From: a virus | Lineage: Duplodnaviria > Caudoviricetes | IMG/VR virus record: IMGVR_UViG_3300031951_000243 | Coordinates: 1 to 50,552 of that record | Length of the DNA stretch: 50,552 bases | Reading direction: 5' to 3' (one strand) | Shown: positions 887 through 46,229 of the stretch, in pieces | How the letters are laid out: each line of letters opens with the position of its first letter | How positions within the stretch are numbered: the first letter of the stretch is position 1 | Notes under the pieces: generated by a model | The model's input: only the letters and a program-made list of their open reading frames with translations | What the model was told of the DNA's origin: nothing | The model's database searches: none | Translations under genes and position numbers: made by a program

Positions 887-897
887 TGGAGAACAAA

Positions 898-1700: not shown

Positions 1701-1719
1701 TACTGACGATCAGTAACTT
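1701..1719 (+). promoter_or_regulatory. Palindromic element, copy 2
   Basis: TACTGACGATCAGTAACTT lies between stop 1698 and the GGAGG RBS. Confidence 0.7.
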
Positions 1720-1730
1720 TGGAGGATGAT

Positions 1731-2765: not shown

Positions 2766-2796
2766 ACAACCTGTAGCACAAACCTTGGAGAAAACA

Positions 2797-3084
2797 ATGA
2801 ACACAACGACACAATTCTCATCTGATGTAGATCGACTCGGCATCCTGCTGGCGCAGATCGCTGACCTAACCAAAGAAGCTAACAGCATCAAGGCTGACCT
2901 GAAAGGGTGGGCGCAGTTCAAGACGTTCGAGGGCAATCTGTTTCGCGCGGTGGTGATCGAGCAGGAAAAGATCACGTATGACACAGACGTACTGAAGACG
3001 GCGGCTGACCCTGCCATTCTCGAGCTGGCAAAGCGTGAGTCATTTGTAGTGTCGGTGAAGGTCACCGCACGTGCAGCCGACTAA
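2797..3084 (+). CDS. Hypothetical phage protein
   Basis: CCTTGGAGAAA RBS before ATG 2797. The ORF-track start at 2737 lies inside the promoter. Confidence 0.7.
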   Translation: MNTTTQFSSDVDRLGILLAQIADLTKEANSIKADLKGWAQFKTFEGNLFRAVVIEQEKITYDTDVLKTAADPAILELAKRESFVVSVKVTARAAD

Positions 3085-3111: not shown

Positions 3112-3144
3112 ACAACCATGACGTACTAACCTTGGAGAAACATC

Positions 3145-5469: not shown

Positions 5470-5492
5470 ACAATTTACCTTGGAGAACTATC

Positions 5493-6371
5493 ATGGCTAT
5501 TCAAAACACTTCTGTATTGGTTGACCTGCACATCACTGCATGGACTGGACGCAAGCTCGACAAGAAAGTATCGGGCGAGATCGACGCAAGCAAGAACACC
5601 AAGACCCGCGCTGGTAATTACCACAAGCACCTGCTGGCTGGCACTGACAAACTCGAGACCGTTCAACGTCTGGCTGGTGCGCTACGTACGTGGCACCACG
5701 AGAACACTCTGCCTTGGTCGGATGGTGGCTCGCGTCTGCTGCCGATGAAGAACTTCTTTGACTACAAGCAGGAGCTGTCAAAGCGTCAGCGCGAGTTCGA
5801 CGCAGCGGTGCAGGACTTTCTGGATCACTATCCAGAACTGGTTTCTTCTGCTGCCTTCCAGCTTGGCGCGTTGTTCAATCGCACCGATTACCCAGAGGTC
5901 GAGGACATCAAACGCAAGTTTTACATCGGCTACGTGTTCATGCCTGTACCAACCGCTAACGATTTTCGCATCGAGACTACCGATGAGACGATCAAGGAAC
6001 TGCAAGCGCAGGCTGATGCTGTGGTCAATGAGCGTGTGGCTACTGCGATGAAAGAAATGTGGGATCGCTTGCATGACCAGCTCACGCACATGTCGGACAA
6101 GCTGACTGATCTGGCGCAGCCACGTGTGAACAAGAAGGGCGAGGAGCGTTACAACCAAGTGTTCCGCGATTCGTTGGTGACCAATGCTATCGAGTTGTGT
6201 GGGCTGCTGACTCGACTCAACGTGACCAACGATCCGAAGCTGGAGCAGGCACGTGCGCATCTCGAGAAGACCATCAGCGGTGTGACGGCTGAAACACTGC
6301 GCGACGATGATCTGAAACGTGCCGAGGTCAAGGCTGAGGTAGACGCAATCCTAAAAGCATTTGAGTTCTAA
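5493..6371 (+). CDS. DUF3150-like helical protein often found with AAA/VWA pairs
   Basis: WTGRKLD, TLPWSDxGxRLLP and LNVTNDPxL motifs; gene context. Confidence 0.6.
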   Translation: MAIQNTSVLVDLHITAWTGRKLDKKVSGEIDASKNTKTRAGNYHKHLLAGTDKLETVQRLAGALRTWHHENTLPWSDGGSRLLPMKNFFDYKQELSKRQREFDAAVQDFLDHYPELVSSAAFQLGALFNRTDYPEVEDIKRKFYIGYVFMPVPTANDFRIETTDETIKELQAQADAVVNERVATAMKEMWDRLHDQLTHMSDKLTDLAQPRVNKKGEERYNQVFRDSLVTNAIELCGLLTRLNVTNDPKLEQARAHLEKTISGVTAETLRDDDLKRAEVKAEVDAILKAFEF

Positions 6372-6381
6372 GGAGACCAAC

Positions 6382-7218
6382 ATGGAAGACACAACAAAAA
6401 TCGTAGTACCCCAAGTCGCTGAACTGGCAAAAGAGTTCATGAGTAAGATTCGTTATTCGTTCGACACCGAAGTGGCGGGGCGGTTTGTCCGCTACGAAGG
6501 TGATAGCAACGAGCGCGTCGAGTACTACACTCGCTTGAATATTATTGACCCAGCTGCGCCGGAGATGAAACCGGTAGGGGCTATCGTGTGGGTAAGTGAC
6601 AATAATAGTGACAGGTTCCGTATCGTTACTCGCCACCTGTTGAACAACCGATTCAAAGATAGGGAGCGTAAGTATTCAGTTGAGACGGCTGACCCGAAAC
6701 GTGCGCTGCGGGAGATGTTAAGACACTTCAGCCCGTACACCATGCATGAGCTGGGTGCGCATCACATGTCGCATGGCAAGAGAGCGATTGATTGCTGGCG
6801 CGATGAGTCCTCGCTGGATGTGTCTACTTCACTGCGGGTGCCCAACTCCATCATGGTGCAGGAGATGAAAAACCTGATCGCACAGGGCGTGAGGTTTGCC
6901 ACGGCGGAGTTTCAGGGTATCGCTGAACGTACAGTAGCTGCGTATGACGAGATGGCGCGTCGAGCCAAGGTCAAGGTAGTCATGCACTTGGTGAAGTTCA
7001 TGCCGGATGACAGCATCAGGACGCTGGCTTATGCAGAGAACGGAGCGGGTGTGCCAGAAGTTAATAGGTATCTATCGTTCGCGCAGATGCCGGAGCGGTT
7101 GCAGCAGGGCGTGGGTATGTTGCGTATGTTGCAAGACAATACACGTATCGACGGGTTTGGTACGCGGGTCTCAGACACTACGTTCTGGGTGTTGGAGCGG
7201 GACGATGAAAATGTTTGA
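6382..7218 (+). CDS. Hypothetical protein
   Basis: AAGGAG RBS before ATG 6382; long ORF in operon. Confidence 0.75.
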   Translation: MEDTTKIVVPQVAELAKEFMSKIRYSFDTEVAGRFVRYEGDSNERVEYYTRLNIIDPAAPEMKPVGAIVWVSDNNSDRFRIVTRHLLNNRFKDRERKYSVETADPKRALREMLRHFSPYTMHELGAHHMSHGKRAIDCWRDESSLDVSTSLRVPNSIMVQEMKNLIAQGVRFATAEFQGIAERTVAAYDEMARRAKVKVVMHLVKFMPDDSIRTLAYAENGAGVPEVNRYLSFAQMPERLQQGVGMLRMLQDNTRIDGFGTRVSDTTFWVLERDDENV

Positions 7219-8222: not shown

Positions 8223-8247
8223 TACAACTTAACCTTGGAGAAACATC

Positions 8248-8913
8248 ATGGATATGAAAGTCAAAGAAACAGCAGTCGTTATTTCCGCACCAAAGTTCAA
8301 CACCGTTGAGATTCTATTGCAGGGCACTGCCCCGCTGGTGGTCGCACGTTTCAGCAAGAAGGTTGACCTGATGATGAAGATGGCGCAGGGCACCACGGCT
8401 AAGAGTAAGAAAGAACGCAGCGCCCGTGACTATGACAAAGAAGCGGATGACGCACGTTACTACTCAATGGAGGGTTGGGAAGGTGTAAACGCAGCAGCAT
8501 TCCGCGCAGGGATGATCAGTGCATGCCGACTGGTCGGGTTCAAGATGACGCTGGCAAAGCTGTCGGTGTTTGTCGAGGCTGATGGTTGGGATAAGCAGGA
8601 TGGCATCCCACTGGTGCGCGTGTATGGCAAGTCCGAGACCTTCACTGCACACACCAGAAACGCTACAGGTGTAGTGGACGTGCGTAGCCGTCCGATGTAT
8701 CGCGACTGGGCTATCAAGTTACGTGTTCGCTTCGACGCAGATCAGTTCACCGCGCAGGATGTGTACAACTTAATTGCACGTGTTGGTGGGCAGGTCGGTC
8801 TGTGCGAAGGTCGCCCAGATTCCAAGTCTTCTGCGGGTTGTGGCTTCGGTACGTTTGAGGTGGTGCCGAATGACCGCCAGAAGGAAGTCAGCAAGAAGTT
8901 CGGCATTAAGTAA
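8248..8913 (+). CDS. Solo Cas7/RAMP-superfamily-like RNA-binding protein; candidate effector of the adjacent array
   Basis: N-terminal strand ILLQGTAPLVV; helix GVNAAAFRAGMISA, equivalent to the RAMP IPGSSLKGALR motif; C-terminal glycine-rich loop GGQVGLCEGRP...GCGFGTFEV. Sits immediately upstream of the repeat array. Confidence 0.75.
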   Translation: MDMKVKETAVVISAPKFNTVEILLQGTAPLVVARFSKKVDLMMKMAQGTTAKSKKERSARDYDKEADDARYYSMEGWEGVNAAAFRAGMISACRLVGFKMTLAKLSVFVEADGWDKQDGIPLVRVYGKSETFTAHTRNATGVVDVRSRPMYRDWAIKLRVRFDADQFTAQDVYNLIARVGGQVGLCEGRPDSKSSAGCGFGTFEVVPNDRQKEVSKKFGIK

Positions 8914-9078
8914 ATGTGCAAAGCGCCCGGATTCATAAGGACGAGAGGGAAGCTGGCATATCTGATCTTTAACTCTAGATAGACGTAGGGGCGCGAGAAA
9001 ATTCACTATGTCTATCAGCTCTGTAACGCGAAAGGGGGCGCGGAATATGCCTAACCCCCTAACAATCCCAAGGTGCGT
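8914..9078 (+). ncRNA. Structured leader of the array
   Basis: Stem 8978-8988/9006-9016 (11 bp, one G:U); GGCATAT 8955-8961/ATATGCC 9045-9051; AGGGGG 9033-9038/CCCCCT 9055-9060. Confidence 0.45.
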
Positions 9079-10263
9079 GGCGTGGCAGGTGGCGTGGGGA
9101 CAGGCGGCGCGCGGTGGCGTAAGGTGGGATTCGGTTTGGTTTGCCACGGTAAGGCAGGTGCGGCACGGCCCGGCCCGGTACGACGCGGTTGGTTCAGGTT
9201 CCGGTGTGGTCGGGTACGGTAAGGCAGGAGCGGCGTGGATCGTTGTGGTTTGTTCCCGTAGCGTCAGGTATGGTGGGTTAAGGCAGGTCCGGCGTGGTAG
9301 CGCAGGGTAGCGTATGTCTGCGTAGCGATAGGTGCGGTGAGATGGGGTAAGGCAGGTCGGGTTAGGCTGGGCTTCGTTCGGTGCGAAATGGTGCGGTGAG
9401 GCGGGGTGAAGTAAGGCAGGACCGGCAACGCCCGTTTAGGTTCGTTCGGGCCGGGTTTGGTTGGGTAAGGCAGGTATGGCATGTCATGGTCAGGCGAGGT
9501 GAGGTTGGGTTCGGTCCGGTGAGGTAGGGCAGGTATGGATTGGCATGTTCGCGTTCGGTGCGATGGGGTATGTTCGGGTAAGGCAGGTCTGGCTCGGCAA
9601 GGCTCGGTTGTGTATCGCAAGGTCTGGTAAGGCAGGTGAGGATCGGCACGGATAGTTCAGGCGCGATCTGGTGGGGTAAGGCAGGTTAGGCAGCGCAGGG
9701 CAAGGTGCGGTATCGCATGGTCAGGTTTGGATTGGTAAGGCAGGTGAGGTGTCGCAAGGCAAGGTTAGATGTCGTGCGGAATGGTAAGGCAGGTATGGCA
9801 AGGTGCGGTGCGTTGCAGTACGGAGTGGTTGGTTAAGGCAGGTGTGACCCGGCTCGGCAACGCGAGGTTTGGTGCGGCGAGATCAGGTAAGGCAGGTGAG
9901 GCAGCGTATGGACGGGCACGGTATGGTTGGGTGTGGTAGGGCAGGTATGGCAAGGCTCGGCAGGGTTAGAGAGCGGTAAGGCAGGTCAGTTCAGGCGAGG
10001 CTTGGTGGGGTATGGCGCGGTGGAATGCGGTCTGGTTCGGCGGGGTGAGGTGAGGCAGGTACGCCTACGCGTGGTATGGGTGCGTTCGGCTGGGTGAGGT
10101 GAGGCAGGTTAGGCGGGGCAACGTGGCGTTAGGCGTGGTGCCGTGCGGTCTGGTAACGCAGGTGAGGTGTGGCACGGAGCGGTACGGTCGGGCGGGTTGA
10201 GGTCCGGCAGGTTAGCTCTGGATGGGCGAGTTCTGGCGAGATAACGCAAGGTGAGGCAGGTAA
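9079..10263 (+). repeat. Non-coding GGY-NN pentamer array of 21 units delimited by GGTAAGGCA(GG); putative guide-RNA array (CRISPR-like but not a canonical CRISPR)
   Basis: Delimiters start at 9079, 9148, 9218, 9277, 9346, 9410, 9464, 9523, 9577, 9626, 9675, 9734, 9783, 9832, 9886, 9935, 9975, 10049, 10098, 10152, 10201 and 10250. Periods are 49/54/59/64/69/74 (5n+4) except one of 70 and one of 40. Confidence 0.92.
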
Positions 10264-10280
10264 ATAACTTGGAGGAAGCA

Positions 10281-10745
10281 ATGAAAGAAGAACGGAAGTT
10301 TTTAGAGCAACTAGCAAAACGCAACGGCGGCATGTTGATGGTAGAGGACGTGCTGAATGAAGCGAAAGACCCAAGGTGCATACTGCACAAACACTTTCAG
10401 TGGGATGACACCGCCGCAGCGGAATCGTATCGCAAGCTGCAAGCGCGTCAGCTAATCCAGAAGTGCGTGGTCACCGTAGAGAAGGCACCTGATGTGCCTA
10501 TTCGTGCGTTTGTTAGTCTGACTACTGATCAATACTCAGGTGGTGGCTATCGTATGACGGCAGAAGTTTTGTCGGACGATGACTTGAAGTCGCAGTTGCT
10601 GCATGACATGATGGTCACGCTGACCAAGTGGAAGAAACAGATTAACTTGATGGATAGGGAGACTGCTGCAATCATTGATCAACTGGAAGGCATTGTACGT
10701 ACCAAGACTAAACCCAAACACAAATCCGTAACGAGCAGAGTATGA
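10281..10745 (+). CDS. Conserved phage protein; candidate accessory of the RAMP/array locus
   Basis: GxLxxEDVLxEAKDPxxxLHxxFxWDDxxAAxxYRxxQARxLI motif; CTTGGAGG RBS directly after the array. Confidence 0.75.
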   Translation: MKEERKFLEQLAKRNGGMLMVEDVLNEAKDPRCILHKHFQWDDTAAAESYRKLQARQLIQKCVVTVEKAPDVPIRAFVSLTTDQYSGGGYRMTAEVLSDDDLKSQLLHDMMVTLTKWKKQINLMDRETAAIIDQLEGIVRTKTKPKHKSVTSRV

Positions 10746-10948: not shown

Positions 10949-11148
10949 TGAAAGACGTACTCCAAGCATGGATGGATTACATAAAACCAATCGTAGGGGT
11001 AGACATCCAGCCCGCGCATTACAAAGCGTTCATGGCTGGCGCGGCAGCAGAGCGAGAAGAAGTTGCACTGCTGGTGGAGAGGATGGGGATTGAAGGCTAC
11101 GGCACACTGGCTATTGCAGCAGCAATCCGACAAAGGGGAAGAGCATGA
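10948..11148 (+). CDS. Hypothetical protein (AAAERE...AAIRxRG family)
   Basis: Coupled ORF; paralogous C-terminus with 11145-11354. Confidence 0.65.
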   Translation: MKDVLQAWMDYIKPIVGVDIQPAHYKAFMAGAAAEREEVALLVERMGIEGYGTLAIAAAIRQRGRA

Positions 11149-11354
11149 CTGATGAAGAAGTGGATCGTTTGTTGGCGCAAGCAGTCCGGGAGGCAGAGCC
11201 GAACGAACTTTATAAGTACCGCTTCGCCAAATTAGTCGCAGCAGCAGAGCGTGAGGCGTGTGCCAAGTTACTCGACGAGATGGCAGCGGCAGACAGGCTG
11301 TCGAACTATTACCAAGTAGCAGCACTAAGGATTAGAGAGCGGGGTGCGCCGTGA
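11145..11354 (+). CDS. Hypothetical protein (AAAEREACA...IRERG family)
   Basis: Coupled ORF with a typical small phage-protein motif. Confidence 0.65.
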   Translation: MTDEEVDRLLAQAVREAEPNELYKYRFAKLVAAAEREACAKLLDEMAAADRLSNYYQVAALRIRERGAP

Positions 11355-18708: not shown

Positions 18709-18794
18709 GTAGTTGTAGTACCGCAGTACACAATTTGAAACGCAGCAGGCTATTGTGAAAATGTCACTTTAGCCTGTTCCCCCTTGGAGCAAGC

Positions 18795-20357
18795 ATGCAA
18801 ATCATCGAAGACAAAGCACTATTACTAAAAGTGCGGCACCCGGAGCGGATCACGGAAGTGATACCGAAAAGCAAAGTACTAAACAACGGCGAGGTGCTGG
18901 TCAAGTGGGGGCTGGAGGAAGCGCAGGTGCTGAAGAATCTGCGCATCAAGAATGTGCCGTCACCCATCATGTCGCACTACCACTGGCCCGGCCTGTACCG
19001 TCCGTTTGATCACCAGAAAGAAACCGCATCATTTTTGACCCTGCACCGGAGGGCATTTTGTTTTAACGAACAGGGCACCGGTAAGACAGGCAGTGTGATC
19101 TGGGCGGCGGACTATCTAATGTCGTTGGGCCACATACGTAGAGTGCTTGTCCTGTGTCCGCTGTCGATCATGCAGTCAGCTTGGCAGAATGATTTGTTCA
19201 GGTTCGCCATGCACCGCACGGTGGCAATTGCCCACAGCCACTCCCGCCAGAAAAGAATCGACGCAGTATGCAGCGATGCGGAGTTCGTCATCTGTAACTT
19301 TGATGGGCTAGACATCATCAAGGACGCGATAAAAGAAAACGAATTTGATCTCATCGTCGTTGATGAAGCCAACGCATACAAAACGGTTTCCACGAAACGG
19401 TGGAAGGTGCTGAACCAAATACTGACACCCAGCACATGGGTCTGGATGATGACGGGCACCCCTGCTTCGCAGTCCCCCACGGACGCATATGGGCTGGCGC
19501 GTATCGTCAACCCATCGTCGGTGCCTAAGTTCTTTGGGTCGTTCCGCGACATGGTGATGCAGAAGATCACAACCTTTAAGTACGTGCCACGCCCACAGGC
19601 AGAGTCCATCGTGCATAACGTACTACAGCCAGCGATCAGGTACACCAAAGAAGAATGCCTTGACCTGCCGGAGATGACGTACACCACCCGTAACATACCG
19701 CTCACCCCTCAGCAGATGAAGTATTACGAGACGCTGCGTAAGCACATGGTGGCGGTCGCTGCCGGGGAAGAGATCACAACAGTCAACGCCGCTGCTAGTC
19801 TGAACAAACTCCTACAACTCTCTTGTGGTGCGGTGTACTCTGATAGTGGAGAGGTCGTTGCGTTCGATGCATCTAATCGCATTGCAGCATTAAAAGAAGT
19901 TATCGATGAAGCTACGCACAAGGTGATCGTATTTGCTCCCTATAAACATAGCATTCATATAATTAGCGAAGAGCTAAAGAAGTCTGGTTATACCTGTGAG
20001 GTAATTAGCGGAGACGTGTCTGTTGGCAAACGCACCGAAATCTTTGCCAAATTCCAAACAGAACCTGACCCAAAAGTTTTGGTAATCCAGCCACAAGCGG
20101 CCTCGCATGGTGTAACCTTAACTGCTGCCAACGTGATTGTGTACTGGTCGCCCGTCATGAGCGTGGAGACCTACCTACAAGCTAACGCACGAACCCACCG
20201 TGCTGGGCAACGCAACCCCTGTACCGTAGTTCACCTGCAAGGCTCCCCCGTAGAGAAACGTATGTACGCCATGCTGGAGGCGAAGATTGATATTCACTCC
20301 CGTGTGGTCGATCTATATAAAAATTTCCTTGATCCTCTTGACAGTGTCAAAGAATAG
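18795..20357 (+). CDS. SNF2-family (SF2) helicase
   Basis: QGTGKT, VVDEA, MTGTP, HGVTLT and QANARTHRAGQ motifs. Confidence 0.92.
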   Translation: MQIIEDKALLLKVRHPERITEVIPKSKVLNNGEVLVKWGLEEAQVLKNLRIKNVPSPIMSHYHWPGLYRPFDHQKETASFLTLHRRAFCFNEQGTGKTGSVIWAADYLMSLGHIRRVLVLCPLSIMQSAWQNDLFRFAMHRTVAIAHSHSRQKRIDAVCSDAEFVICNFDGLDIIKDAIKENEFDLIVVDEANAYKTVSTKRWKVLNQILTPSTWVWMMTGTPASQSPTDAYGLARIVNPSSVPKFFGSFRDMVMQKITTFKYVPRPQAESIVHNVLQPAIRYTKEECLDLPEMTYTTRNIPLTPQQMKYYETLRKHMVAVAAGEEITTVNAAASLNKLLQLSCGAVYSDSGEVVAFDASNRIAALKEVIDEATHKVIVFAPYKHSIHIISEELKKSGYTCEVISGDVSVGKRTEIFAKFQTEPDPKVLVIQPQAASHGVTLTAANVIVYWSPVMSVETYLQANARTHRAGQRNPCTVVHLQGSPVEKRMYAMLEAKIDIHSRVVDLYKNFLDPLDSVKE

Positions 20358-20366: not shown

Positions 20367-20394
20367 GTAGCCGTAGTTACCCTTGGAGATCGAC

Positions 20395-20811
20395 ATGACT
20401 GAAGAAGCACTAGCAGAGGTGCCTGTCATCCCAACTGACAAGCTGGTGAAAGCGTACATTAAGATACGCGATGCCCGTAAGACGTTGGCTGACAAGTACG
20501 AGAAAGAAGACGCTGACCTCAAAGAGTCGCTGGAAGCAATTGAAAGCCAGCTTCTCGAAGCATGCAAAGTGGTCGGTAGTGACAGCTTACGAACACCATT
20601 CGGTACGGTCAGCCGCCGTGTATTAAAACGGTTCTGGACAAACGATTGGCATTCGTTCCACGAGTTCTTGAAGGAGCACGAAGCCTTGGAGTTACTGGAG
20701 AAGCGAATCTCGCAATCCAACATGGCTACGTTTCTTGAAGAAAACCCTGACCTGCATCCGCCGGGTCTAAATGTTGACAGCCGTTACGCGGTTGTTGTTC
20801 GTCGTAAATAA
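20395..20811 (+). CDS. Conserved coiled-coil phage replication-module protein
   Basis: KLVKAYIKIRD...SLRTPFGT...LLEKRISQ...PPGLN; CCCTTGGAG RBS. Confidence 0.75.
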   Translation: MTEEALAEVPVIPTDKLVKAYIKIRDARKTLADKYEKEDADLKESLEAIESQLLEACKVVGSDSLRTPFGTVSRRVLKRFWTNDWHSFHEFLKEHEALELLEKRISQSNMATFLEENPDLHPPGLNVDSRYAVVVRRK

Positions 20812-20822
20812 GGAGAAAGACA

Positions 20823-21707
20823 ATGAGCGAACTTGCTCTATTTAATCAGAATCTTCCAGCACACCTGCGTAACGCGGAGATGGATGAAACAACCAAAGCC
20901 TTGATGGGTAGTGGCGGCGGTGGCAGCAAGCGCATCTCTATCGAGGGCGGCGTTTGGCGCATGATGGTCAACGGCAAGGAAGTTGCACAGAACGAAGACC
21001 GTGCCATGAATGTAGTCATCGTTGCGGCTGCACAGAAAGTCTCGCGTATCTTCTACGCAGGCACCTACAAGAAAGGCGTTATCAGCGCCCCAGATTGCTG
21101 GTCACCTGATGGCGAAGTACCAGATGCCAAGGCCAAGAACCCGCAAAGCAAGTCGTGCGCTACTTGCCCACAGAACGTAAAAGGTTCGGGTAACGGCGAT
21201 ACACGTGCATGCCGCTTCCAGCAGCGTCTGGCTGTGGTATTGGAGAACGATGTTGCTGGTGATGTGTATCAGCTTGCGCTGCCATCCACGTCGATCTTTG
21301 GTGCAGGCGAGAACGGCAAGTGGCCTCTGCAAACCTACGCCAAGATGATCGCAAGCAAGGGTGTGCCTATTACGTCCGTCGTAACAGAGATGCGCTTCGA
21401 CACTAGCAGCTCGACACCGAAGCTGACGTTCAAGCCAGTGCGTTATCTGGAGACGGATGACTTCAATACCGCACTGGAGCAGGGCAAGTCCCCGGCGGCT
21501 ATCAGCGCAATCACCATGACTGTCGCGCAGACCGATGGTGTTAAGGATGACGGCGAGGAGTTCGAACAGAAAGCACCCGCTGCCAAAGTTGAAGCAGCAG
21601 AACCTGCGGAAGTGCCAGAGCCTACTAAACGCGCAAGCAAGAAGGAGGAAGCCCCAGCACCCAAGAAGGACGTAAGCAAAATCCTCGAAGAGTGGGACGA
21701 TGAGTAA
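20823..21707 (+). CDS. Putative ssDNA-binding/annealing protein
   Basis: CWSxDG...CATCPQN..GS...RAC Zn motif; acidic, aromatic C-terminal tail (EEWDDE); located in the replication module. Confidence 0.6.
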   Translation: MSELALFNQNLPAHLRNAEMDETTKALMGSGGGGSKRISIEGGVWRMMVNGKEVAQNEDRAMNVVIVAAAQKVSRIFYAGTYKKGVISAPDCWSPDGEVPDAKAKNPQSKSCATCPQNVKGSGNGDTRACRFQQRLAVVLENDVAGDVYQLALPSTSIFGAGENGKWPLQTYAKMIASKGVPITSVVTEMRFDTSSSTPKLTFKPVRYLETDDFNTALEQGKSPAAISAITMTVAQTDGVKDDGEEFEQKAPAAKVEAAEPAEVPEPTKRASKKEEAPAPKKDVSKILEEWDDE

Positions 21708-21942
21708 CGGGTACGCATCCCGGTTCATTAAAGCTGTGAATTCAGCGGACACTAACAAGCTTGGTGTCCAGCTTGGCAACCTGTGCATAGAAAACGACAT
21801 ACCAGCACAGGACGTGGCGGAGCACTTTGGAGTAACCCGCACCACGATATACAACTGGTTCAAAGGGCTGACGAATGTTCCGCCCATGCATCAGGAAACC
21901 GTTGCCAAGGCTATCAAAGTGCTGCTGGATAAACGGAAATAG
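21700..21942 (+). CDS. XRE-family HTH protein
   Basis: AQDVAEHFGVTRTTIYNWFKG. Confidence 0.85.
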   Translation: MSNGYASRFIKAVNSADTNKLGVQLGNLCIENDIPAQDVAEHFGVTRTTIYNWFKGLTNVPPMHQETVAKAIKVLLDKRK

Positions 21943-21950
21943 CGCAGGTT

Positions 21951-22024
21951 TGGGGGGCTAGGGCGCGCACCCGAAGAGGGTAGTTGCCGTCACTATCCCT
22001 GCCCACCCATTTTTAAAAGACGGC
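21951..22024 (+). promoter_or_regulatory. Structured 5' leader of primase-helicase (candidate cis-regulatory RNA)
   Basis: Outer stem 21951-21958/22001-22009; inner stem 21977-21984/21992-22000; loop GCCGTC complementary to GACGGC at 22019-22024. Confidence 0.5.
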
Positions 22025-22035
22025 TTGGGGCGGCT

Positions 22036-24897
22036 ATGCTTACGAGGACAGACTTCCTGTCTTTAGTTTTACCACCTACGGGGCACTATTGCGTAGTGGG
22101 GCTAAAGAAGGATGCAAAACCAAAACAAATATTCGTGTCGTCAGTAGAGGAGATTGATCTCTATGCGGATGCGCTGGTGCACAAAGGGTACGACGCGTAC
22201 TTTGCACTTGCTTCGTTCACTGAAGACGCGGGACGGACTGCTGCCAATGCAGCACAACTAAATTCTTTCTTTCTCGATCTCGATTGCGGTCTTGGTAAGC
22301 CTTATGCTGACCAAGCGGATGGTATTGCCGCGCTCAAAGAGTTTGTGAAAAAAGTTGGTATGCCGAAGCCAACTGCGATTGTGAACTCCGGACGTGGAGT
22401 GCATGCGTACTGGGTGGTAGAGCAGCCAATCGAGAAAGCCGAGTGGCGTGGGTTAGCGGAGGGTCTCAAGGCACTGTGCACAGCGCACAACCTGCATGCC
22501 GATCCAGCAGTCACCGCTGACGTTGCGCGTATCTTGCGTATACCGAACACGCTGAACTTTAAGAACTCGGATGATCCGTCACCCGTGAAGCTTGTCATGG
22601 CTGGGTCTCGCGTAGGTGTGGAAGCATTACGGGATAAGTTCGTAGTGAACGAGCTGCACATCCCCGGCGAGAAACCGTTTCAGCGGGAGATGGACCCAAC
22701 CACGCTGGCGCTGCTAGGCAACTATCAGTCCAAGTTCAAGACCATTCTGATCAAATCAGTACAAGGAGAAGGCTGTGCTCAGATTGCGCACATTTACCAA
22801 AATCAGGACTCCGTGGAGGAACCGCTATGGAGGGCGGGCTTATCAATTGCTCACCACTGCGCCGACGCAGCAAAAGCCATCCACATTCTCTCGAACAAAC
22901 ATCCGGAATATGATGCGCGTACAACTGAAAAGAAAGCAGCGCAGACCAAAGGTCCATACACTTGCGAGACCTTTAAAAAGCTATCACCTGCGTTATGCGA
23001 GGGCTGTGCGGTCAAGGTTACCTCTCCTATACAAATCGGACGAGAAGTTATCCATCCCGACGAAAATGCGGATGACCCGGTTGTACAGGACGTTGAGCCT
23101 GTTACCCAAGAAGTGCGTCAGTACACGATACCTAAATACCCTTTTCCTTTCTTTCGTGGGAACGTAGGTGGCATCTATTTACAGGTAGAGCCGAAGAAGA
23201 ATAAAGACGGTACGGTGGAGAGCGCGGAAGACATACTAGTTTTTCCGCACGACTTTTATGTTGTGAAGCGACTGCACGATCCTGAAGAAGGCGAGTGCAT
23301 CATGATGCGGCTGCATCTACCAAAAGACGGTGTGCGTGAGTTCATCATGCCGCTGCGGGAAGTTATATCCAAAGACAGATTTATGGGTGAGATTGCCAAA
23401 CATGGAGTGGCACTCATAGGTAAAAAACAGGAGGCAATGATGTTGTACACCACCCGCTGGGTTGAGGAGCTTCAAGCAATCGGCAAAGCTGAGATTGCTC
23501 GAAAGCAGTTTGGTTGGCTGTCAGATAACAGCGCGTTTATTCTGGGCGATAAAGAAGTCCGGCACGATGCTATTGAGTACAGCCCGCCTTCCGCTGCGAC
23601 GCTACCTTTGATACCCGCGTTCGGTGTGCGTGGTGACTTCCACGTGTGGAAAGATGTGGTCAACCATTACCGGCATCCCGGCATGGAGCTTCGTGCATTG
23701 GCACTCTTTATGGGTTTTGGTGGGCCGCTGATGAAGTTCGTGGCAGGCGGTGCGCTGAATGGGTTCCTGCTGAATCTGGTCAGTAAAGAAGGTGGCACCG
23801 GTAAATCAACGCTGCTGCAAGCAATCAATAGCATCTACGGCAACCCTGATGCGCTGATGATGTCCTACAAGGATACGCACAACTTCCGCTTGCAGCGGTT
23901 TGGCAGCATGCAGAACATCACCGCGACGATTGATGAGCTGACCAACATGAAGCCGGAGATGATGTCCGATCTGGTGTACGACATTACGTCAGGTAAGGGC
24001 AAAGGCCGGATGTCCGCCAAAGCTAACGTGGAGCGGGTTAACAATACGACATGGCAGCTACCGGTGGTCTCTTCATCCAACAAGGTGATTCGGGATGCGC
24101 TGCTGTCGATCAAGTCCTTCCCCGAACCGGAACTGCTGCGCATACTGGAGGCAAATTTAGCTATCGATAATTCGCTCGATGCAGTGCAGGCCAAGCAGCA
24201 CTTTGGCAGGCTGCCAAGCAACTACGGACACGCAATCATCCCCTACATCCAACACGTACAAAGTGACTTACCTGCGATGATTGAATTGTTGAATGGTGTG
24301 AACGAAAAGTTAGATCGGGCGGCAGGCATCATGGGCAACGAGCGGTTCTGGTCTGCCGGTATGGCGATTGGCCTGACAGGGGGCATCATCGCGGCTCGGT
24401 TGGGGTTGCACGATATTCCGGTCAAGCCGGTGATGGACTGCGCGGTGCAGTTGATTCAGAACAGCCGCCGCAGTAACAAGGAGTCAATGTTCGACAGTGA
24501 AGATTTCCTTGGCGCGTTCCTACAGCGTCACTTCCACGAGATTCTGGTGATCAACGGGTCGAAGGACAACAAGACCGGGCTGGAGCATGCGCCTATCCGG
24601 GAACCCCGTGGCCCACTAACCGTACGGTATGAGCCAGATACCAAGCTGTTATTTGTGTCGGTGCGCCCGTACCGGGAAGATTGCAGCAAGTATTCGATGA
24701 GCTATGACGGGTCGCTGGAGCCATACCAGAAAGCCGGTGCCTATCTTGGGATGAAGCGTAAGCGGATGTTTGCAGGCACGATTACCAACACTGCGCAGAA
24801 CGTACACGCGCTGGTGTTCGACGCTTCGAAGCTGGACTTTTTTAACGAGGATGTCCTGCTAAATGCTCCGGATTCTATCCCTTCCGATTTCGATTGA
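22036..24897 (+). CDS. Primase-helicase (AEP/RepB-like primase, DUF927-like region, P-loop helicase)
   Basis: FLDLD, NSGRGVHAYW, RILRIP, Cys cluster, Walker A GGTGKST and Walker B TIDE. Confidence 0.9.
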   Translation: MLTRTDFLSLVLPPTGHYCVVGLKKDAKPKQIFVSSVEEIDLYADALVHKGYDAYFALASFTEDAGRTAANAAQLNSFFLDLDCGLGKPYADQADGIAALKEFVKKVGMPKPTAIVNSGRGVHAYWVVEQPIEKAEWRGLAEGLKALCTAHNLHADPAVTADVARILRIPNTLNFKNSDDPSPVKLVMAGSRVGVEALRDKFVVNELHIPGEKPFQREMDPTTLALLGNYQSKFKTILIKSVQGEGCAQIAHIYQNQDSVEEPLWRAGLSIAHHCADAAKAIHILSNKHPEYDARTTEKKAAQTKGPYTCETFKKLSPALCEGCAVKVTSPIQIGREVIHPDENADDPVVQDVEPVTQEVRQYTIPKYPFPFFRGNVGGIYLQVEPKKNKDGTVESAEDILVFPHDFYVVKRLHDPEEGECIMMRLHLPKDGVREFIMPLREVISKDRFMGEIAKHGVALIGKKQEAMMLYTTRWVEELQAIGKAEIARKQFGWLSDNSAFILGDKEVRHDAIEYSPPSAATLPLIPAFGVRGDFHVWKDVVNHYRHPGMELRALALFMGFGGPLMKFVAGGALNGFLLNLVSKEGGTGKSTLLQAINSIYGNPDALMMSYKDTHNFRLQRFGSMQNITATIDELTNMKPEMMSDLVYDITSGKGKGRMSAKANVERVNNTTWQLPVVSSSNKVIRDALLSIKSFPEPELLRILEANLAIDNSLDAVQAKQHFGRLPSNYGHAIIPYIQHVQSDLPAMIELLNGVNEKLDRAAGIMGNERFWSAGMAIGLTGGIIAARLGLHDIPVKPVMDCAVQLIQNSRRSNKESMFDSEDFLGAFLQRHFHEILVINGSKDNKTGLEHAPIREPRGPLTVRYEPDTKLLFVSVRPYREDCSKYSMSYDGSLEPYQKAGAYLGMKRKRMFAGTITNTAQNVHALVFDASKLDFFNEDVLLNAPDSIPSDFD

Positions 24898-25063
24898 CTG
24901 GAAGAACTTCCGCCCGGATACCTCAATCTTCATACCCTGTCTGGATTACCGCCCAGTGCAGGAGTTTGTGGAGGCTGAGGCTACCCGGCTGCGGATGCAG
25001 GTTGTTTGCAAACGGGTAATAGAAAACCGTAAGTACGGATTGCGTGTCTGGAGATTGGCATGA
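24863..25063 (+). CDS. Small conserved hypothetical protein
   Basis: GAGG RBS; SIFIPC...GLRVWR motif. Confidence 0.6.
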   Translation: MLRILSLPISIDWKNFRPDTSIFIPCLDYRPVQEFVEAEATRLRMQVVCKRVIENRKYGLRVWRLA

Positions 25064-25069
25064 TATGCT
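25040..25069 (+). promoter_or_regulatory. Candidate promoter for the small RNA
   Basis: TTGCGT-N18-TATGCT with extended -10 TG; no + strand ORF downstream. Confidence 0.5.
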
Positions 25070-25074
25070 TGGCG

Positions 25075-25147
25075 CACTCACTGCTTTCTCCAAGGGAAGT
25101 TGAGTTCGCCCCCGAGTGCTTCTCCCCTTTGCACCGGGGGCTTTTTT
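25075..25147 (+). ncRNA. Candidate two-hairpin sRNA with anti-RBS loops, ending in an intrinsic terminator
   Basis: Hairpin 1 (ACTCA/TGAGT) encloses TTTCTCCAAGGG. Hairpin 2 (GCCCCCG-A-GTGC/GCAC-CGGGGGC) has loop TTCTCCCCTTT and is followed by T6. Confidence 0.55.
25108..25147 (+). terminator. Intrinsic terminator at the convergence of the two genome arms
   Basis: GC-rich stem 25108-25119/25131-25141 followed by TTTTTT. Confidence 0.85.
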
Positions 25148-28100
25148 ACATCCTCGCCATCTGCTTCATCCTCGGTATATTGTAGGCTTCAAGGAATTCT
25201 TTCTCTACCCGCAAAATCTCATCTGTCTTTTCCCGTTTTTCTGCCGGAGATAGATCAGAATCATTAGCAATGATGTTGCGGTACTTCCGTAGCTTGGCTA
25301 GGTGGTCCTCAATTTTATTGACTGCACCTCTCATAGCATACAGCTTCAGTTTGTCTTCGGTCAGATATTCCTGCAATTCTTCTGTACGCCCTTCGCGCTT
25401 GAAGGTATTAACTGAGTTAACCACCTTGTCAACGCGCTCACGGAATTCGTAAAACTCTGTCTTGTACCCACGCCCAGTATCGTCATACATGAACGTCTTG
25501 ATCAATGGCAGCTTGTTGACAGGTTTAGCTATCCGATTGGGATCACCTACCGCATCAGTCACATCCAGTATCACCCCACCCACGGTGCCAAGATAGCCAC
25601 GCATTAGATAGTCAACCTTCATCGGCGATAGCCCAACATACCCAAACAGCTTAGCTAGTTCTGACGTGTGGTCGTTGAACTGTAAGTAAGTTTCCTTACC
25701 TGCCATGTTGATGCCGACAATCGGATTATCCGTAAAGAACGAATAGTTCGTAGCTACCTCAATAGCAGGCTTGAGCAACTGCGGCGTAAGGTTGACCCCA
25801 CCATAGGCGTTGATGGCAGCATTTCGCATGCTCTTCATGAAAGTCGTAGCGTCTACTGGGCGGTCAGTGCCCTCACGTGCAATCGCCTGATAGATACGCT
25901 CTGGGATAACTTTGAACAAGAAACCAATTTCAGGTGCCACAGGCAGTTTCATACCCGTGCCGGGGATGATGAAGTTGAAGTCACGCTCACGGTCATCCAG
26001 ACCTTTGTAGTCATCATCGTCGCCCACCAACGCAGCGTAGAGCATGGATAGTGCAGCAACCTTGGCACCGGTGCCGAAGAACAAAGCCATAGCAGCCTTG
26101 CGATCCTCCATCGCCAACCCTTTACCTTGGATAGTGCGATACAGCACGTCCATACCTTGGATGTAGGCGTTCATGAAGGGGACAATCTGACGCAGGATAC
26201 GTACTGTCTGCCCGTTGCCGGAAGTCTTGAAGTTGATGTACTCCTTAGCACGATGGAAAGCCAGCACTCGGTCGCCGGTCTCTTTCATGGTCTGGTCGTA
26301 GATAGCAGCACGTACCGCCATGTCCGCTGCCAGCGAGAAGTCTTCCAGCTTGTCCCAGAAACGCTTAATAGCTGCGCGGTCTTGCAGCCCATGCCGCTCA
26401 CGCACTTTACGCATGACGTGATCAGGCATCCCATCATAAGCGCCGGTAATACCTAGTCCCTGAATATCGGATTCGCTGCCGGTGACTGCTTTGTAGAAGT
26501 TACCCAGCACCTGCGTGGGTAGCGAGAACGGATGCTTCACGCCCGACAAGAACATCGCACGTACCGTATCCTGTACAAGCTGACTAAGCGCAAAGGTCGG
26601 CATGTGGGTAACGAAGCTACGTAGCCCAGTAGCAGCCACGGTAAACGCTTTTAATGCAGGCCCTGCTACATCTACCACGTTGGAGAACGCCGCCAAGTCT
26701 TCTTGGTTCTGCAAGCGGAATGCCACGCGCTCACCATCGCGGTAGGCAAACACTACCAAGTGCCGGTTGTTTTTCAGCTCGCGGTCAACCTCATCCTGTG
26801 TCTTTAGCTCATCAGCAGATGGCAACGCCTCAAGCGTCTTGATAGCCGCACGGTTCTTCAAACCAGAGCGCATCGCCCAGATAGTGTGCCCCACCATGTT
26901 GTCCATCACGTTGCGGATTTCTTTGGAACTACCTTCCTTGTCCAGTGTCGGAAGGCTAGTCAAATGCACGTTACCGGTACGAATCTTAGTAAGCCCGTCT
27001 ACCTTATTGTCTTCTTCCTCGATACGCGTCCACGGCACATAACCAATATTGTCTTTCCAAGCCTGCGCTTCTGCTGGGCTTAACCGCCCCATAGCTACCA
27101 AGAAGTCGGTGATGCCTTCGTTGTATTTAGTGAATACGTCAAACGCTTGCTTCAGTTCTGGGAACTCACGCATCGCCTCGAGGCCAGCATCGATCTCTTC
27201 CTGTGAAGCACGGACTTGTACAATTTGATCACGAAGTAGTTTAGCCGCACGCTTATTACCTTTGGCTTCCGCAGCATCGGCTTGCTGGCGCAAAGTTTCT
27301 GCACGTTTGTTCAGCTCATTCGCACGTTGCGCGATAAACGCACGATGTGCAAGAGTGATGGCGGTATTAGCCGATCCAAGTTTCGCACCTAGTTCTTCCG
27401 TGATGATTTCAAACACACGGTCAAGACTAATCTGCTGCCCATTTTCTACGCGGTCATAGACTTCGACTAACCCATCTTTACCAACACGCACACCACCCCT
27501 ACGCATCAGTTGATCAGCTACACCAGTCGCTTCCTGTGCCTGTTCGTTCAGGATGTCAGGGCGGATATTGCCTAATGCATCGGTTACTTTGTTTTGATAG
27601 GCGGCTGCAATCTGCTCTTTGACCGGAGCGTCTTTATCTACCACTGCCTGTCGAACTGCCATCGGCAGACCTTTGGTTTTACCTGCAAGCAGCGTTACGC
27701 GGTCTAGTAGCGTCTGGTCAACATCAGGCTCCGGCTCATTACCGATACCCTTCATGCGATCATTCAGCGCAGCAGCACGTTGCCCTTCGGGGGTTAGTGG
27801 CTCTTCCTTTCGACGGCGGTACAGGATGCGGCCTTCTTTCTGACCGTACGCGCCTGTATTGAACGGAGACTTTAGCTGGCTGCTGTTGTAGACAGCGAGG
27901 TTCTTGCGACGGCCTTCAAAAACGTAGAAACCATCGAAGCCAGCAAATCGAATAGCTTCCTGCACATCTGGGGATTCAATAGCCCCCCAACTACCCCGCT
28001 GAATGTCTGCAAACGTGCCTGCATCAAGAGAAATCGTACGCTTTAATTCCGCGAGGTGCGCTGGGTTATCGTAGTCAAATGGCTTTTGTGCGCTGACATA

Positions 28101-31100
28101 GACCGGGATAATGTTTGCACGACTGGGTAACTGATTTAACAATATCTGATTTAACTCAGACTCGATTGAATATGGGGATAACCCATAAGAAGCATCAACT
28201 TGATCTAAATCTCGTGTAATTTCAGCCGCTTCTTTTTTAGTAATGTTGCCATTTGCTAATGCAAGCCGTGTAGCTTCCTTAATCCACCCCGCACGTTGTT
28301 CAGGAGTAGCTTGATTAAAAAGCTGCGTAATCATGTAATTTTCGCTGGCGTGGCTAAACGACCTAGCAAACGCTGGCGAGTCTGTAACAAAAATAGCATT
28401 CGCCTGCTTAGGGCGAAATTCTTCAATATCCTGAGCCGTGCCGTGATACATCAGCTTCGGTGAGCCATCTGGATTGCGGACAACGGAGTTGCCGAACCAT
28501 TTCTTGAATGCATCGGTGCCGACACGGTACAGGGGCTTGCCTTTAAACGCAGCAACACCTTCAGCTTTCGGGCCACCTGCAACAACAAACCGCTGTGCGT
28601 TAGCCAGCAGCTCACGAACTTCAGTGTCGGTTACTTTGCTTGGGTTAAACCCAAGGCGGCGGATGAATTGGCGGATTGCGTTAAAGATGCGCTGGATGGC
28701 GTTGTTATACACCCCAGCTTCTGCCATTTCAGCAAGCACTTCTTCGACGGCGGTGTGCTTATCCAAGCCTTCCGCTATTTTTGCTTTTGCTGCTTCGCGG
28801 ACTTTAGCGTTGCCGTTGTAAATGTCATCCATCACTTTGCCGTAGGTATTGCCCAATATGGACTGAATACCAAAGTGGCCTAACGCTTCGTGGGTTAGCG
28901 TCAGCACCGCTTCTTTTACGTTCGGGATGTTGTCAGCAATTAAATAGACGGTCTGCGTGTTCGGGTCATACACCCCCGGTGCGCTAAGTGCATTGTCCCT
29001 GAGCATCTGTTGCAGCAACTGTGGCGGCAGCTCTTGGATGTCCTGAACAACTTCAGTCTTGGGTGCGTTCTTCCAGCGGGCGATGATGCCGTTGACAACC
29101 TTCTCAACCGCAGACTTGGGCATGCCCTCATCGATTGGGTTCTCTGGCGTACGATATAGCGCCCGTTTAGTTTCCTCGGCAATACCCTCTTCTTCCTTAC
29201 GAGCAGCCATCTGCGTTTTTGCAGCAACAGCGGACGGGGTGCCGGGTACAGTCTTGGTAACTTCTCTAGTTACTTCTGGCGCAGCTTGGCGAGTCAGATC
29301 ACCAGCTTTTACTGCTTTACCACGCACGAAGTCCATGACAGCGTTCTGATTGTCAGGGACGATGAACAGTTTTGCACCGTCCATCTGCTTCTCGTAGTTA
29401 TCTAGCAGGAACTTGTACGTCGTCTTGTCTACATTGATGCAACCGAAAGAGTAGCGCGAGTCTTCTGGGCTATCTTTAGCCAGCGCCTTTTGTCGGGCTT
29501 GTGCATCCGACATCTTAGTGTAGACGGAATGGAATAGCGTGATGGAATATTCACCATCAATTGCTTTATCCAAAACGAATACTTTGCCAAAGTCATAATC
29601 ACCAGCGGTCACCGCTTCGCCTTTGCTACGGGTCGCGTCACGCAGGCCCATAGTGAACAAACCAGCAGGAGTAAGGCGGTTAGCTTTTACATCCGTGTTG
29701 CCCTTGTAGTAATCCCCGGTCTGCAAACCAAGCAGTACCTTCTTATCAAGGATAGGTTGCCCATTAGCATCGAACACAAACACACGGGCGTTTGGCTTGT
29801 CGGTGAGAACGAACAGCTTATTGTTCTTCTGAAGGTCTGCTTGGATAGCAGGCATGATGTTGGCATACGCTTGTTGCGCAGCGGGGGACATCCGCGCCTT
29901 TACTGCTTCTGGCACCTGAGCAAGAACCTGCTCAACTGTGGTTACGTTCTTTGGAATCGCTACCTGATAGCCGGGGCCGATGTAGTTAGGGTTCAGAATG
30001 ACGGCAGCAGCCAGCACAGAAGCATGCAATTTCTTGATGATGCTGCGGATTGCTTTGTCAATCGCCTGTGCGCCTTTGGTCGCAAACTTGACGATGTCTT
30101 CACGAACCTTGGCAAGGAACGCTGGGCTGTTTACCGGCTCGCCATAATGCTCGGCAAGCTTTTGCTGTTCAGGCGATGAAAGTTGTAAAACAGCAGGTGC
30201 AACGGTCTCTTCGTCGATTACACGGAACTGCCCTTCAATCACGTTGCTTAAATCTTCAAGCGCGACTGAATTATCGTATGGGTCGGCTACGTTACGAACA
30301 AAATCCACCGCTTCTTTGCGGGTGTAGCCATTAAACACAAGTTGCGAAATAGCATTGTCTGCACTGACTCGATTTTCTGCTAGTGCGGGAACGCCAGCAG
30401 CTTCAGCAGTAGTCGGTGCTTGTATTTCTTGGGCAGTGGGAGGTTGTACAGGAAACGGTACATCCGGAGCAGCAGGTTGTTCAGTAGGGGTCGCACTTGG
30501 AGGCACCGTTAATGCAGTTGACTGTACTCCCGCTCCGACATCAGGCTGTTGAGCAGCCCCTCCAGTAACATCCACTCCACCGGGGAGAGGTGCTGTAATT
30601 CCTCCGGGGGGTGCGGCTCCGCGTTCGCCAGCCATTGCAGTGCTAGGCTCAGCTGCTGGTTCGACAAGCTCTGTAGGTTGGATGACATCGGTTGCCTCCT
30701 TTGCTTTTTTAGCACGTGGCTTTCTTGGTGGGCGCAGATCAAGTTCACCTTGCTCCATGAACACCGGGCTGCTCAAAAAGCTGTTAACCCCTTCGATCAG
30801 CTTGGGGCTACGGTTAGGGTTGTTAGCAAAATCAGTCAGCACTTCTTGAACTTCGGCGCGTTGGGCGGGATCAGCCAAGTCCTTGCCCATAATAGCTTCA
30901 CGCAGTCTCTTATTAGTCTTGCCGATACCCATCGCCTTGAAGTCAGCTTCGGTAACCGGGCGAGTTTCAACCGCCTCCTCCATCGCAGGTGCAGGTTGAA
31001 TGTACTGTGGACCAAGACGGAACCCCGGCTCTTCTTCAGGAACTACTAGTTCAGGTGCTGGCTGCGACTCAAACAGTGCGCGTTGCTCGCGCTCGTTCAT

Positions 31101-40073: not shown

Positions 40074-41156
40074 TTACGTCTTGATGATGAAGTTGATGCC
40101 GAGATATGGAGGCATGTTTGCGTTAGTGCCGGATGAACCTTCTGTGCTGTTAGATACAGAAATCCCAGTGCCCACGGTTGTAGTTGCCTGTGTTTTGTTT
40201 GTCGCATCCTGTCGATCACCACCGCCCCAAGCAGGGTTTGTATTGCCAGCGTTAGAGCCACGCCAGACATTTAACGTCATGCTATGCGAGTGCCCCGGAT
40301 CAGTGACCGTTGCTGTGTGGGTGTGGCTTACAACAATCGCGTCTTTGGAGCCGCCTGTAGCGCCGATTGAAGCAGCGATAGTGTTTGCCCCAATAGGCAT
40401 CCTGTCCCGATAGTCGGGTAAATTAAAGGTTGTAGTCGTGTCTCCTGCGCCAAACGTCGTACCAATCACAGCAAACAAAGCTGCATAGGTGGTGCGAGAT
40501 ACCGCCGCACCGTTACATAACAGCCATCCAGTAGGCGCGGTACCAGTGGACCACATAGTAAGTACCCCAGTAGGAACACCACTAGCAACCGCTGAGTCTA
40601 CGTATTGTTTGGGAGCCGCTTGTAATGCGAGTGTTGGATTAGCATTAAGCGTTACCGTGCTGCCAAATGTAGCTGCACCAGAAAAAGTAGTTGCCCCGCC
40701 AACACTAAAACCGCCTACAACCTGATTTAATTGTTCAACGATATTTGTGCCGTCCGAGCGCAAAAGAACCGATTTGCCTGCGGGAACCGCAACACCCGTA
40801 CCCGCTGCCGTAGTATTGCCAAGAACTGTAGAGCAGTAGACTGTAGCCGTATAGGTAGAGTCTGTATTACGTACAACGTACAACTTAGTAACCGGGGGTA
40901 CATAAACATTAAAGTTAGCGGGAGAACCCCATGCACCTATTGAGAGGTCTATCGCAGCACACCGTGCTTCATCCGCCGATCCGTTTGATGCAGTTAAAGC
41001 TTGATTAGCAGAGGTAACTGAAACTGAAGCCCGTCCAGCAATAGCATCTTCAATCAGCGTGCCAAGATTAGTGTTGGTCGTAGTTCCCCACGTACCTGAC
41101 TGTTCGCCGTTGGCAATGAGTTCGATCCGTAGATCGGGAGAGTATGTACTAGGCAT
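40074..41156 (-). CDS. Tail fibre with tail-collar domain
   Basis: GEQSGTWG N-terminus; PTGWLLCNGAAVSRTTYAALFAVIGTTFG..FNLPD; NMPPYLGINFIIKT. Confidence 0.88.
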   Translation of the reverse strand: MPSTYSPDLRIELIANGEQSGTWGTTTNTNLGTLIEDAIAGRASVSVTSANQALTASNGSADEARCAAIDLSIGAWGSPANFNVYVPPVTKLYVVRNTDSTYTATVYCSTVLGNTTAAGTGVAVPAGKSVLLRSDGTNIVEQLNQVVGGFSVGGATTFSGAATFGSTVTLNANPTLALQAAPKQYVDSAVASGVPTGVLTMWSTGTAPTGWLLCNGAAVSRTTYAALFAVIGTTFGAGDTTTTFNLPDYRDRMPIGANTIAASIGATGGSKDAIVVSHTHTATVTDPGHSHSMTLNVWRGSNAGNTNPAWGGGDRQDATNKTQATTTVGTGISVSNSTEGSSGTNANMPPYLGINFIIKT

Positions 41157-45257: not shown

Positions 45258-45269
45258 CTTTATATATAG

Positions 45270-46217: not shown

Positions 46218-46229
46218 ATTTATCTACTG

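Follow-up and report, generated by a model that had tools for sequence, protein, structure and literature searches.

A predicted small-RNA gene, which would act on the phage's own early and replication genes, lies where the two gene blocks of this virus converge. The window, that is, the whole stretch of 50,552 bases analysed here, is a virus record that is about 80% complete. In the window and its relatives, a unit made of a promoter-like box, a CU-rich 5' part and a terminator is conserved, single-copy and oriented along the plus strand, and its seed changes between lineages in step with the start regions of a subset of early and replication genes. On these comparisons the element is real and conserved, and there is good comparative support for tying it to start regions of the phage itself. 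The original prediction, a discrete small RNA antisense to a ribosome-binding site (RBS) class shared by early and middle genes, is thus borne out at the level of a predicted RNA, as the unit is conserved and the seed covaries. The features of the locus, in window positions, are as follows.

898-25063, plus strand: early and replication block (AAA ATPase, DUF2201 protein, DUF3150, DNA polymerase, exonuclease, SNF2 helicase, DUF927 primase)
Last gene ending at 25146, minus strand: structural and lysis block, convergent with the replication block (open reading frames [ORFs] and family search)
24863-25063, plus strand: ORF of 66 aa, the last gene of the replication block, whose 3' end carries the promoter-like element
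25040-25045, plus strand: -35-like hexamer TTGCGT within Leu-Arg codons, with an 18-base spacer; putative promoter element
25061-25069, plus strand: putative extended -10 box TG-A-TATGCT, overlapping the TGA stop codon of the 66-aa gene
25075-25147, plus strand: predicted small RNA of about 73 bases, the 5' end placed by promoter spacing
25076-25105, plus strand: hairpin 1 of the predicted fold; a weak stem takes up part of the seed GCUUUCUCCAAGGG (25083-25096)
25108-25147, plus strand: intrinsic-terminator-like hairpin and U-tract of the predicted fold, with the open loop UUCUCCCCUUU at 25120-25130

For a complete relative, the closest terminase and capsid are those of the Pelagibacter phages HTVC023P/027P, DSL-LC04 and Pag-Yong1/MinM2 (48-57% and 61-74%), and an Rz-like spanin in the window would imply a Gram-negative host. 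Searches of bacterial genomes found no relatives of the primase, and a DNA pattern scan gave one match, without phage genes or a U-tract, which is regarded as chance. Three tandem tail-collar-fibre paralogs of 314-315 aa lie at 44313-47174, and a related domain lies at 40074-41156.

The neighbouring primase occurs in about 1200 stored viral stretches (an index-scan estimate that counts stretches, not genomes). Four scans of viral contigs for this primase, after removal of 13 duplicates and of loci ending too early, leave 122 distinct contigs, including the window. The -10 box, the CU-rich 5' part and the terminator follow the small gene in 118 of them, down to 30% primase identity. Beyond these, L202 has the unit at another offset and was added by eye, and a distant clade at 32% identity that was missed by the filter carries it as well. 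Three contigs of one clade (L077, L189 and L199, all incomplete records) lack promoter, RNA and terminator; the stop codon of the small gene abuts a convergent giant gene there, a natural knockout. This clade has lost the GAGTGC spacer at phrog_13900 that its neighbours keep, an observation on one clade and one gene. RNA length in a set of 48 representatives (90% primase identity) ranges from 51 to 101 bases (median 61.5); two hairpin loops occur in 45 of the predicted folds, CTCC in 46 of the RNAs and a CACTC leader in 42. The longest variant (L152 and L153, about 101 bases) has one more hairpin, and its CU/U-rich middle section is different. A covariance model from 45 relatives, which is mostly a sequence profile because it holds only 3 pairs, detects a single significant copy in the window as well as two relatives that had been held out; no paralog of the element is significant with this approach across 48 sources. 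The model gives no match below E 0.1 in the cultured relatives Pag-Yong1 (1-44000 of 65014) and DSL-LC04 (14000-61547), and inspection by eye reveals no such unit at the convergence point of Pag-Yong1 or behind the primase of two further cultured phages, Rollin and RHph_TM3_14A.

The two hairpins and the U-tract originally described are recovered in the fold of 25075-25147 (-33.2 kcal/mol, z -4.6, none of 200 shuffles equally stable). The interval first proposed, 25040-25147, shortens to an RNA of about 25075-25147, with 25040-25063 being the coding end of the 66-aa gene. The seed is present in hairpin 1 (CTGCTTTCTCCAAGGG is located at 25081-25096), and UUCUCC is invariant in 14 close relatives, but it does not lie in an open loop, about 5.8 kcal/mol being needed to open 25085-25095. 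Across single folds of relatives this cost ranges from 0.8 to 6.6 kcal/mol, and CACUC or CUCC is unpaired with a probability of at least 0.5 in 33 of the 48 representatives. For most relatives it is the 5' leader that forms the seed. The window clade differs in having its leader paired within the outer stem and its seed displaced to the top of the hairpin. Folding an alignment of 12 close relatives recovers the terminator and not hairpin 1. When sequences are folded one by one, an outer stem appears in which some of the changes are paired (CCUCA/UGAGG in L198 and CCUCG/CGAGG in L200, for example). No Rfam family matches the window at the gathering level.

All 122 contigs have an ortholog of the gene in which the putative promoter is embedded. 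The -35 position overlies a Leu codon, and this is TTG or TTA in all 42 representatives with Leu there, relatives not being independent, against a background of 646 of 2032 Leu codons (32%) in the primase genes of the same representatives. Although TAnnnT was sought at five offsets, so that those three letters are partly selected, 117 of the 118 contigs have it at either of two neighbouring offsets, and unselected positions of the box fit too (G at -2 in 43/48, A at position 4 in 36/48). The box is kept both after the stop codon and inside the variable C-terminal tail of the gene. The claim of a promoter-like sequence is thus favoured by the -10 conservation and the -35 codon bias, but a simple promoter scan leaves it below threshold and unlisted, while the early promoters at 797 and 2737 score 11/12. 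The latter is TTGACA/CATAAT, and 2797-3084 is the first gene after it; the two near-consensus sigma-70 promoters, 797-825 and 2737-2765, have TTGACACAGAGAAAG in common. The putative promoter of the element looks like the host sigma-70 type and not like a late promoter. As for the 66-aa protein itself, Pfam has no family for it, a phage collection holds no match, and its structure model (pLDDT 92) has no fold match at E<=0.001. A role as an RNA chaperone was considered and dropped, the fold search being empty and the gene being kept where the RNA is lost.

Every match listed in the original prediction is present in the window, each just upstream of a start codon, with the second weak site now placed at 1717-1726 (1719 in the prediction). 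One site, GGAGAAAG at 20812-20819, is new. All sites are on the plus strand.

2783-2793, plus strand: predicted target, RBS of 2797-3084; 11/11, net -7.5 kcal/mol
3130-3140, plus strand: predicted target, RBS of the AAA_5/MoxR-like ATPase gene 3145-4263; 11/11, covaries
5478-5487, plus strand: predicted target, RBS of the DUF3150 gene 5493-6371; 10/10, covaries
8233-8243, plus strand: predicted target, RBS of the RAMP/Vipr-like accessory gene 8248-8913; 11/11
10268-10280, plus strand: predicted target, RBS of 10281-10745 (phrog_15946); 12 Watson-Crick pairs and one G:U
18781-18795, plus strand: predicted target, RBS of the SNF2-type helicase gene 18795-20357; 14/15, best net energy in the window (-10.3 kcal/mol), covaries
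20380-20389, plus strand: predicted target, RBS of 20395-20811 (phrog_13900); 10/10, strongest covariation
20812-20819, plus strand: predicted weak target, RBS of 20823-21707 (phrog_27714); 8 bases, net -2.1 kcal/mol, covaries
11131-11139, plus strand: complement of the terminator loop, CAAAGGGGA, RBS of 11145-11354; 9/9, net -9.9 kcal/mol
886-893, plus strand: weak site before 898-1698; net -3.9 kcal/mol
1717-1726, plus strand: weak site before 1731-2042; net -4.9 kcal/mol

The 11-mer CCTTGGAGAAA has three copies on the plus strand (2783, 3130 and 8233), all at an RBS, and one on the minus strand, which is the element itself, where an order-3 Markov model expects 0.03. Selection on the GGAG core as a Shine-Dalgarno site makes this null exaggerate how surprising the count is, and the comparison between phages, not the count of the 11-mer, is the real test. 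The net energies in the window are modest (-10 to -2 kcal/mol; -10.3 to -3.9 for the sites originally listed), and the 13 best of the 62 window genes are all on the early strand. The phrog_13900 protein has a weak Mu Gam-like match below the cut-off, and no ortholog of phrog_15946 was found among the relatives for covariation. The terminator loop had been proposed as a second anti-Shine-Dalgarno sequence; its 9/9 complement at 11131-11139 is present, but the CU-rich terminator motif occurs in only 9 of 48 representatives, and the loop would be a lineage-specific second anti-Shine-Dalgarno sequence. L164 has a second loop, whose complement, AACAGGAGTTAAC, represents a motif class present 7 times in its genome. 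A short inverted repeat, TACTGACGATCAGTAACTT, has three exact copies (868, 1701 and 3093) just upstream of early ribosome-binding sites and is a possible operator, processing site or cassette end.

As the seed varies from lineage to lineage, orthologous genes show matching changes in their start regions. The window clade has the loop UUUCUCCAAGG and sites CCTTGGAGAAA, L016 has the seed AUCACUCUCCU and site AGGAGAGTGAT, and L028 has the seed CGUCACUCUCC and site GGAGAGTGACG; a perfect 14-base match, GCGGAGAACAGAAT, is seen at the helicase gene of L118, and an 11-base match, GGAGAAATATA, at phrog_27714 of L011. The mean duplex energy with the own RNA, compared with foreign RNAs, is -17.7 versus -14.2 for the helicase gene (n=43), -19.4 versus -15.2 for phrog_13900 (n=47) and -15.5 versus -13.7 for phrog_27714 (n=46), each with a permutation p of 2e-4. 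Six control genes (HTH, primase, small gene, gene at 18454, exonuclease and polymerase) show no own-RNA effect (p 0.07-0.94). When these three replication-block genes are summed, the own RNA is better than the swapped one in 15 of 16 independent pairs at a distance of at least 0.25 (p 3e-4) and in 19 of 24 at a distance of at least 0.1 (p 3e-3); the helicase gene and phrog_13900 had been named in the original prediction, and phrog_27714 was picked after seeing the data. Single genes alone are mostly not significant: the helicase gene gives 11/15 and 13/22 pairs, which is not significant, and phrog_13900 gives 15/17, with one pair against and one tie. Three decoy stretches from the same genomes show no own-versus-swapped trend. 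Among 28 longer contigs, the own RNA is better in 5/6 independent pairs for the ATPase, 7/7 for DUF3150 and 5/7 for the DUF2201 gene, as compared with 3/7 for the 6382-7218 family and 3/5 for the gene at 7264; three early genes summed give 7 of 8. Covariation of the loop with the RBS motif, as foreseen originally, is therefore found for both the replication genes (15/16) and the early genes (7/8). A helix of at least 9 pairs is predicted for 140 of 866 starts on the early strand as against 6 of 334 on the late strand, some starts of the gene caller being wrong. The own RNA beats the foreign average in 24 of 28 genomes, and duplexes are most frequent at positions -11 to -5 relative to the start codon.

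Among the other purposes that the same pairing could serve, the RNA might mainly silence the early genes of an incoming related phage, in which case the seed and RBS classes would be exclusion groups. Seed and sites diverge quickly and jointly, even between close relatives, and in those 24 of 28 genomes foreign RNAs match fewer starts than the own RNA. The c4 RNA of P1/P7 is a phage RNA that acts in trans on its own RBS region, and c4 sequence differences that separate related phages underlie P1/P7 heteroimmunity, according to the accessible part of the source (PMC12197685); the element is likewise complementary to such regions and covaries with them. Exclusion as the main purpose is nevertheless unlikely: no integrase was found in the proteins searched, which gives no sign of a long-lived resident state, and self-regulation alone also forces covariation. 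There are also differences from c4, which controls the antirepressor mRNA of temperate phages, whereas the element matches about 8-11 start regions over a 20-kb block. Its matched genes (ATPase, DUF3150, helicase, phrog_13900 and phrog_27714) include no antirepressor, no antirepressor family matches the window or relatives' proteins searched, and the Rfam C4 models do not match the element in the window or the relatives' loci scanned. c4 is processed from a precursor.

It is quite unlikely that the RNA is chiefly a host-directed anti-Shine-Dalgarno RNA, with the phage sites being secondary, in the manner of the toxic double-hairpin RNAs of Betaproteobacteria. Those RNAs (RF02278; ncS03, ncS05, ncS27 and ncS62 of Burkholderia cenocepacia) are about 60 bases long, with two hairpins, a terminator and CU-rich stretches complementary to ribosome-binding sites, all like the element, and they slow growth when overexpressed, as far as the accessible part of PMC5688073 describes them. 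The RF02278 model aligns over its full length to the element in many relatives, and in 26 of 37 records it matches at E<=1 with the element as the best match (15-33 bits; by coordinates, checked in G007, G008, G012, G029 and G037); none of the 37 reaches the 50-bit cut-off (best 33 bits, and 33.5 bits over all scans), and a control was matched in 10 of 14 genomes at this loose level. The window's own copy gives no match at E<=10. The CTCC present in nearly all representatives also suits a host target. On the other hand, a host target leaves the tracking of the phage's own start regions by the seed unexplained, and the matching sites are retained by the phage, not lost. RF02278 RNAs are chromosomal in Betaproteobacteria, whereas the element is phage-encoded, single-copy, variable in its seed and tied to the phage's own genes. 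The likeness may reflect shared ancestry or convergence. The element would function like c4 and looks like a double-hairpin RNA and is a member of neither.

Pairing might also be illusory, the match being one of DNA or of sense RNA, i.e. a repeated protein-binding site with an inverted copy, or a sense decoy in the late minus-strand trailer. DNA-level matching predicts equal numbers of G:U and A:C mismatches, and RNA-level pairing should favour G:U; the G:U to A:C counts of 38:27, 30:24 and 21:20 at three thresholds (p 0.04, 0.22 and 0.22 against shuffled RNA) do not separate the two. RBS classes without a complement in the RNA do exist. The extended class TAACAGGAGTT is present in 10 of the 28 genomes, only 2 of which have its complement in the RNA; since it is mostly without a complement, extended RBS classes can arise without the RNA. 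This class is found in the early block of G025, G029, G028, G038, G039, G042, G047 and three more records, and it can fold with GGA in a small loop, which resembles a CsrA/RsmA site. Against such DNA-level readings, the promoter-like box and the U-tract are both oriented along the plus strand, the promoter has nothing else to transcribe ahead of the terminator, and all gene copies sit on a Shine-Dalgarno site in the sense orientation, which makes them just as improbable as a host target.

A plain 3' untranslated end of the operon with its terminator, where the CU-rich stretch arose by chance or neutral copying, is very unlikely. The element does end the operon, and any CUCC matches any Shine-Dalgarno site. 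It is also free of transcript signal in four RNA runs compared with 21000-29000, where a single 183-base contig (25353-25535) lies off the element, which is neither support nor absence. However, the promoter-like codon bias and the gene-specific covariation with null decoys would be unexpected for a mere terminator. Finally, the idea that the motif serves a 52-codon minus-strand gene from GTG 25081 as its RBS, which the original prediction had named as a refutation of the RNA, is scarcely credible and largely refuted, since, for all the canonical spacing in the window (GGAG, 6 bases, GTG) and the open frame of 52 codons, the ORF is not conserved: no start follows such a site in 13 of the 48 representatives, the others give 2-79 codons in three frames, and the position is a start codon in 4 of 10 close relatives, each open for 29-30 codons.

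The small RNA probably pairs in trans with a fixed subset of early and replication genes and blocks their translation, as a delayed negative feedback; we infer transcription by the host sigma-70 polymerase, the pairing and the repression from the sequence features described above. Host polymerase would read a short RNA from the promoter embedded in the last replication gene, and this RNA would pair over the Shine-Dalgarno site and the spacer to keep 30S subunits off. Block of translation by pairing over a Shine-Dalgarno site is established. The RNA would accumulate as genomes are copied, since the number of templates rises, and the ATPase/DUF3150, helicase and phrog_13900/27714 genes would then be expressed less, the late structural genes being spared. 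The original prediction of an early-to-late switch can be entertained by inference only, and delayed feedback is more plausible than a dedicated late switch because the promoter is weaker-looking than the two early ones. A lysis/dormancy switch, also proposed, finds no support: no integrase family matches any of the 53 window proteins (the window being about 80% of the genome) or 72 chosen from the 127 listed proteins of two complete relatives. One complete relative has a transposase-family gene and an excisionase/HTH-like gene.

Feedback from the 3' end of an operon has a parallel in OppZ and CarZ of Vibrio cholerae, described in the accessible part of PMC7398697 as operon 3'-end RNAs that inhibit translation of their own transcript. 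The element resembles them in its place at the 3' end of an operon and in its complementarity to start regions upstream, but OppZ and CarZ are cut by RNase E from host operons (PMC7398697), whereas the element has its own promoter-like box and many sites. RNAs of the OppZ/CarZ type depend on Hfq. The conserved -10 box points to a primary transcript rather than a cleavage product. VpdS of VP882 and PreS of lambda are Hfq-dependent trans-acting phage sRNAs that tune the lytic cycle; they act on host mRNAs or by Hfq competition, and the accessible part of PMC12197685, in which phage sRNAs act on one phage gene or on host genes, describes no standardised phage RBS class for them. Titles and openings of abstracts, with subscription papers sparsely covered, contain no description of the element.

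The early block also contains another putative RNA-based system.

VIPR-like locus: phrog_4652 gene 8248-8913; array about 9060-10260; phrog_15946 gene 10281-10745

The array consists mostly of 49-70-base units with a GGCAGG handle and has GGY at a 5-base spacing in 93 of 176 gaps, and the locus fits the VIPR description in the accessible part of the published account (10.64898/2026.04.26.720920). Family and Atlas searches did not confirm the RAMP identity of 8248-8913. The guide RNA of VIPR (vrRNA) has alternating GGY/NN repeats beside the vipr gene, whereas the element is CU-rich, about 15 kb from the array and present in genomes without a RAMP-like gene. The RAMP had been proposed as a target; its 11/11 site at 8233 is present, but such a gene occurs in 2 of 17 genomes spanning the early block, both of which have the same RBS-region site before it, so that it is not a general target. 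It and the terminator-loop motif would be local additions. Separately, 8 of the 11 scanned loci carry the Rfam int-alpA motif between primase and HTH gene (for example L070:2105-2170, L045:1398-1468 and L001:2713-2785), in one case above the cut-off; the corresponding region of the window (about 21950-22025) gives no match at E<=0.5.

A broader picture can be offered tentatively. A widespread, integrase-less phage lineage might carry standardised extended RBS tags on its early and replication genes together with one programmable anti-Shine-Dalgarno RNA, possibly a captured betaproteobacterial double-hairpin sRNA, with seed and tags being rewritten together; such an RNA-only regulon would time infection and may define exclusion groups. 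Early gene shutdown is usually credited to proteins. If true, this would be a protein-free shutdown of early gene expression in uncultured phages, and the dozens of natural seed and site variants would be ready-made orthogonal RNA-RBS pairs.
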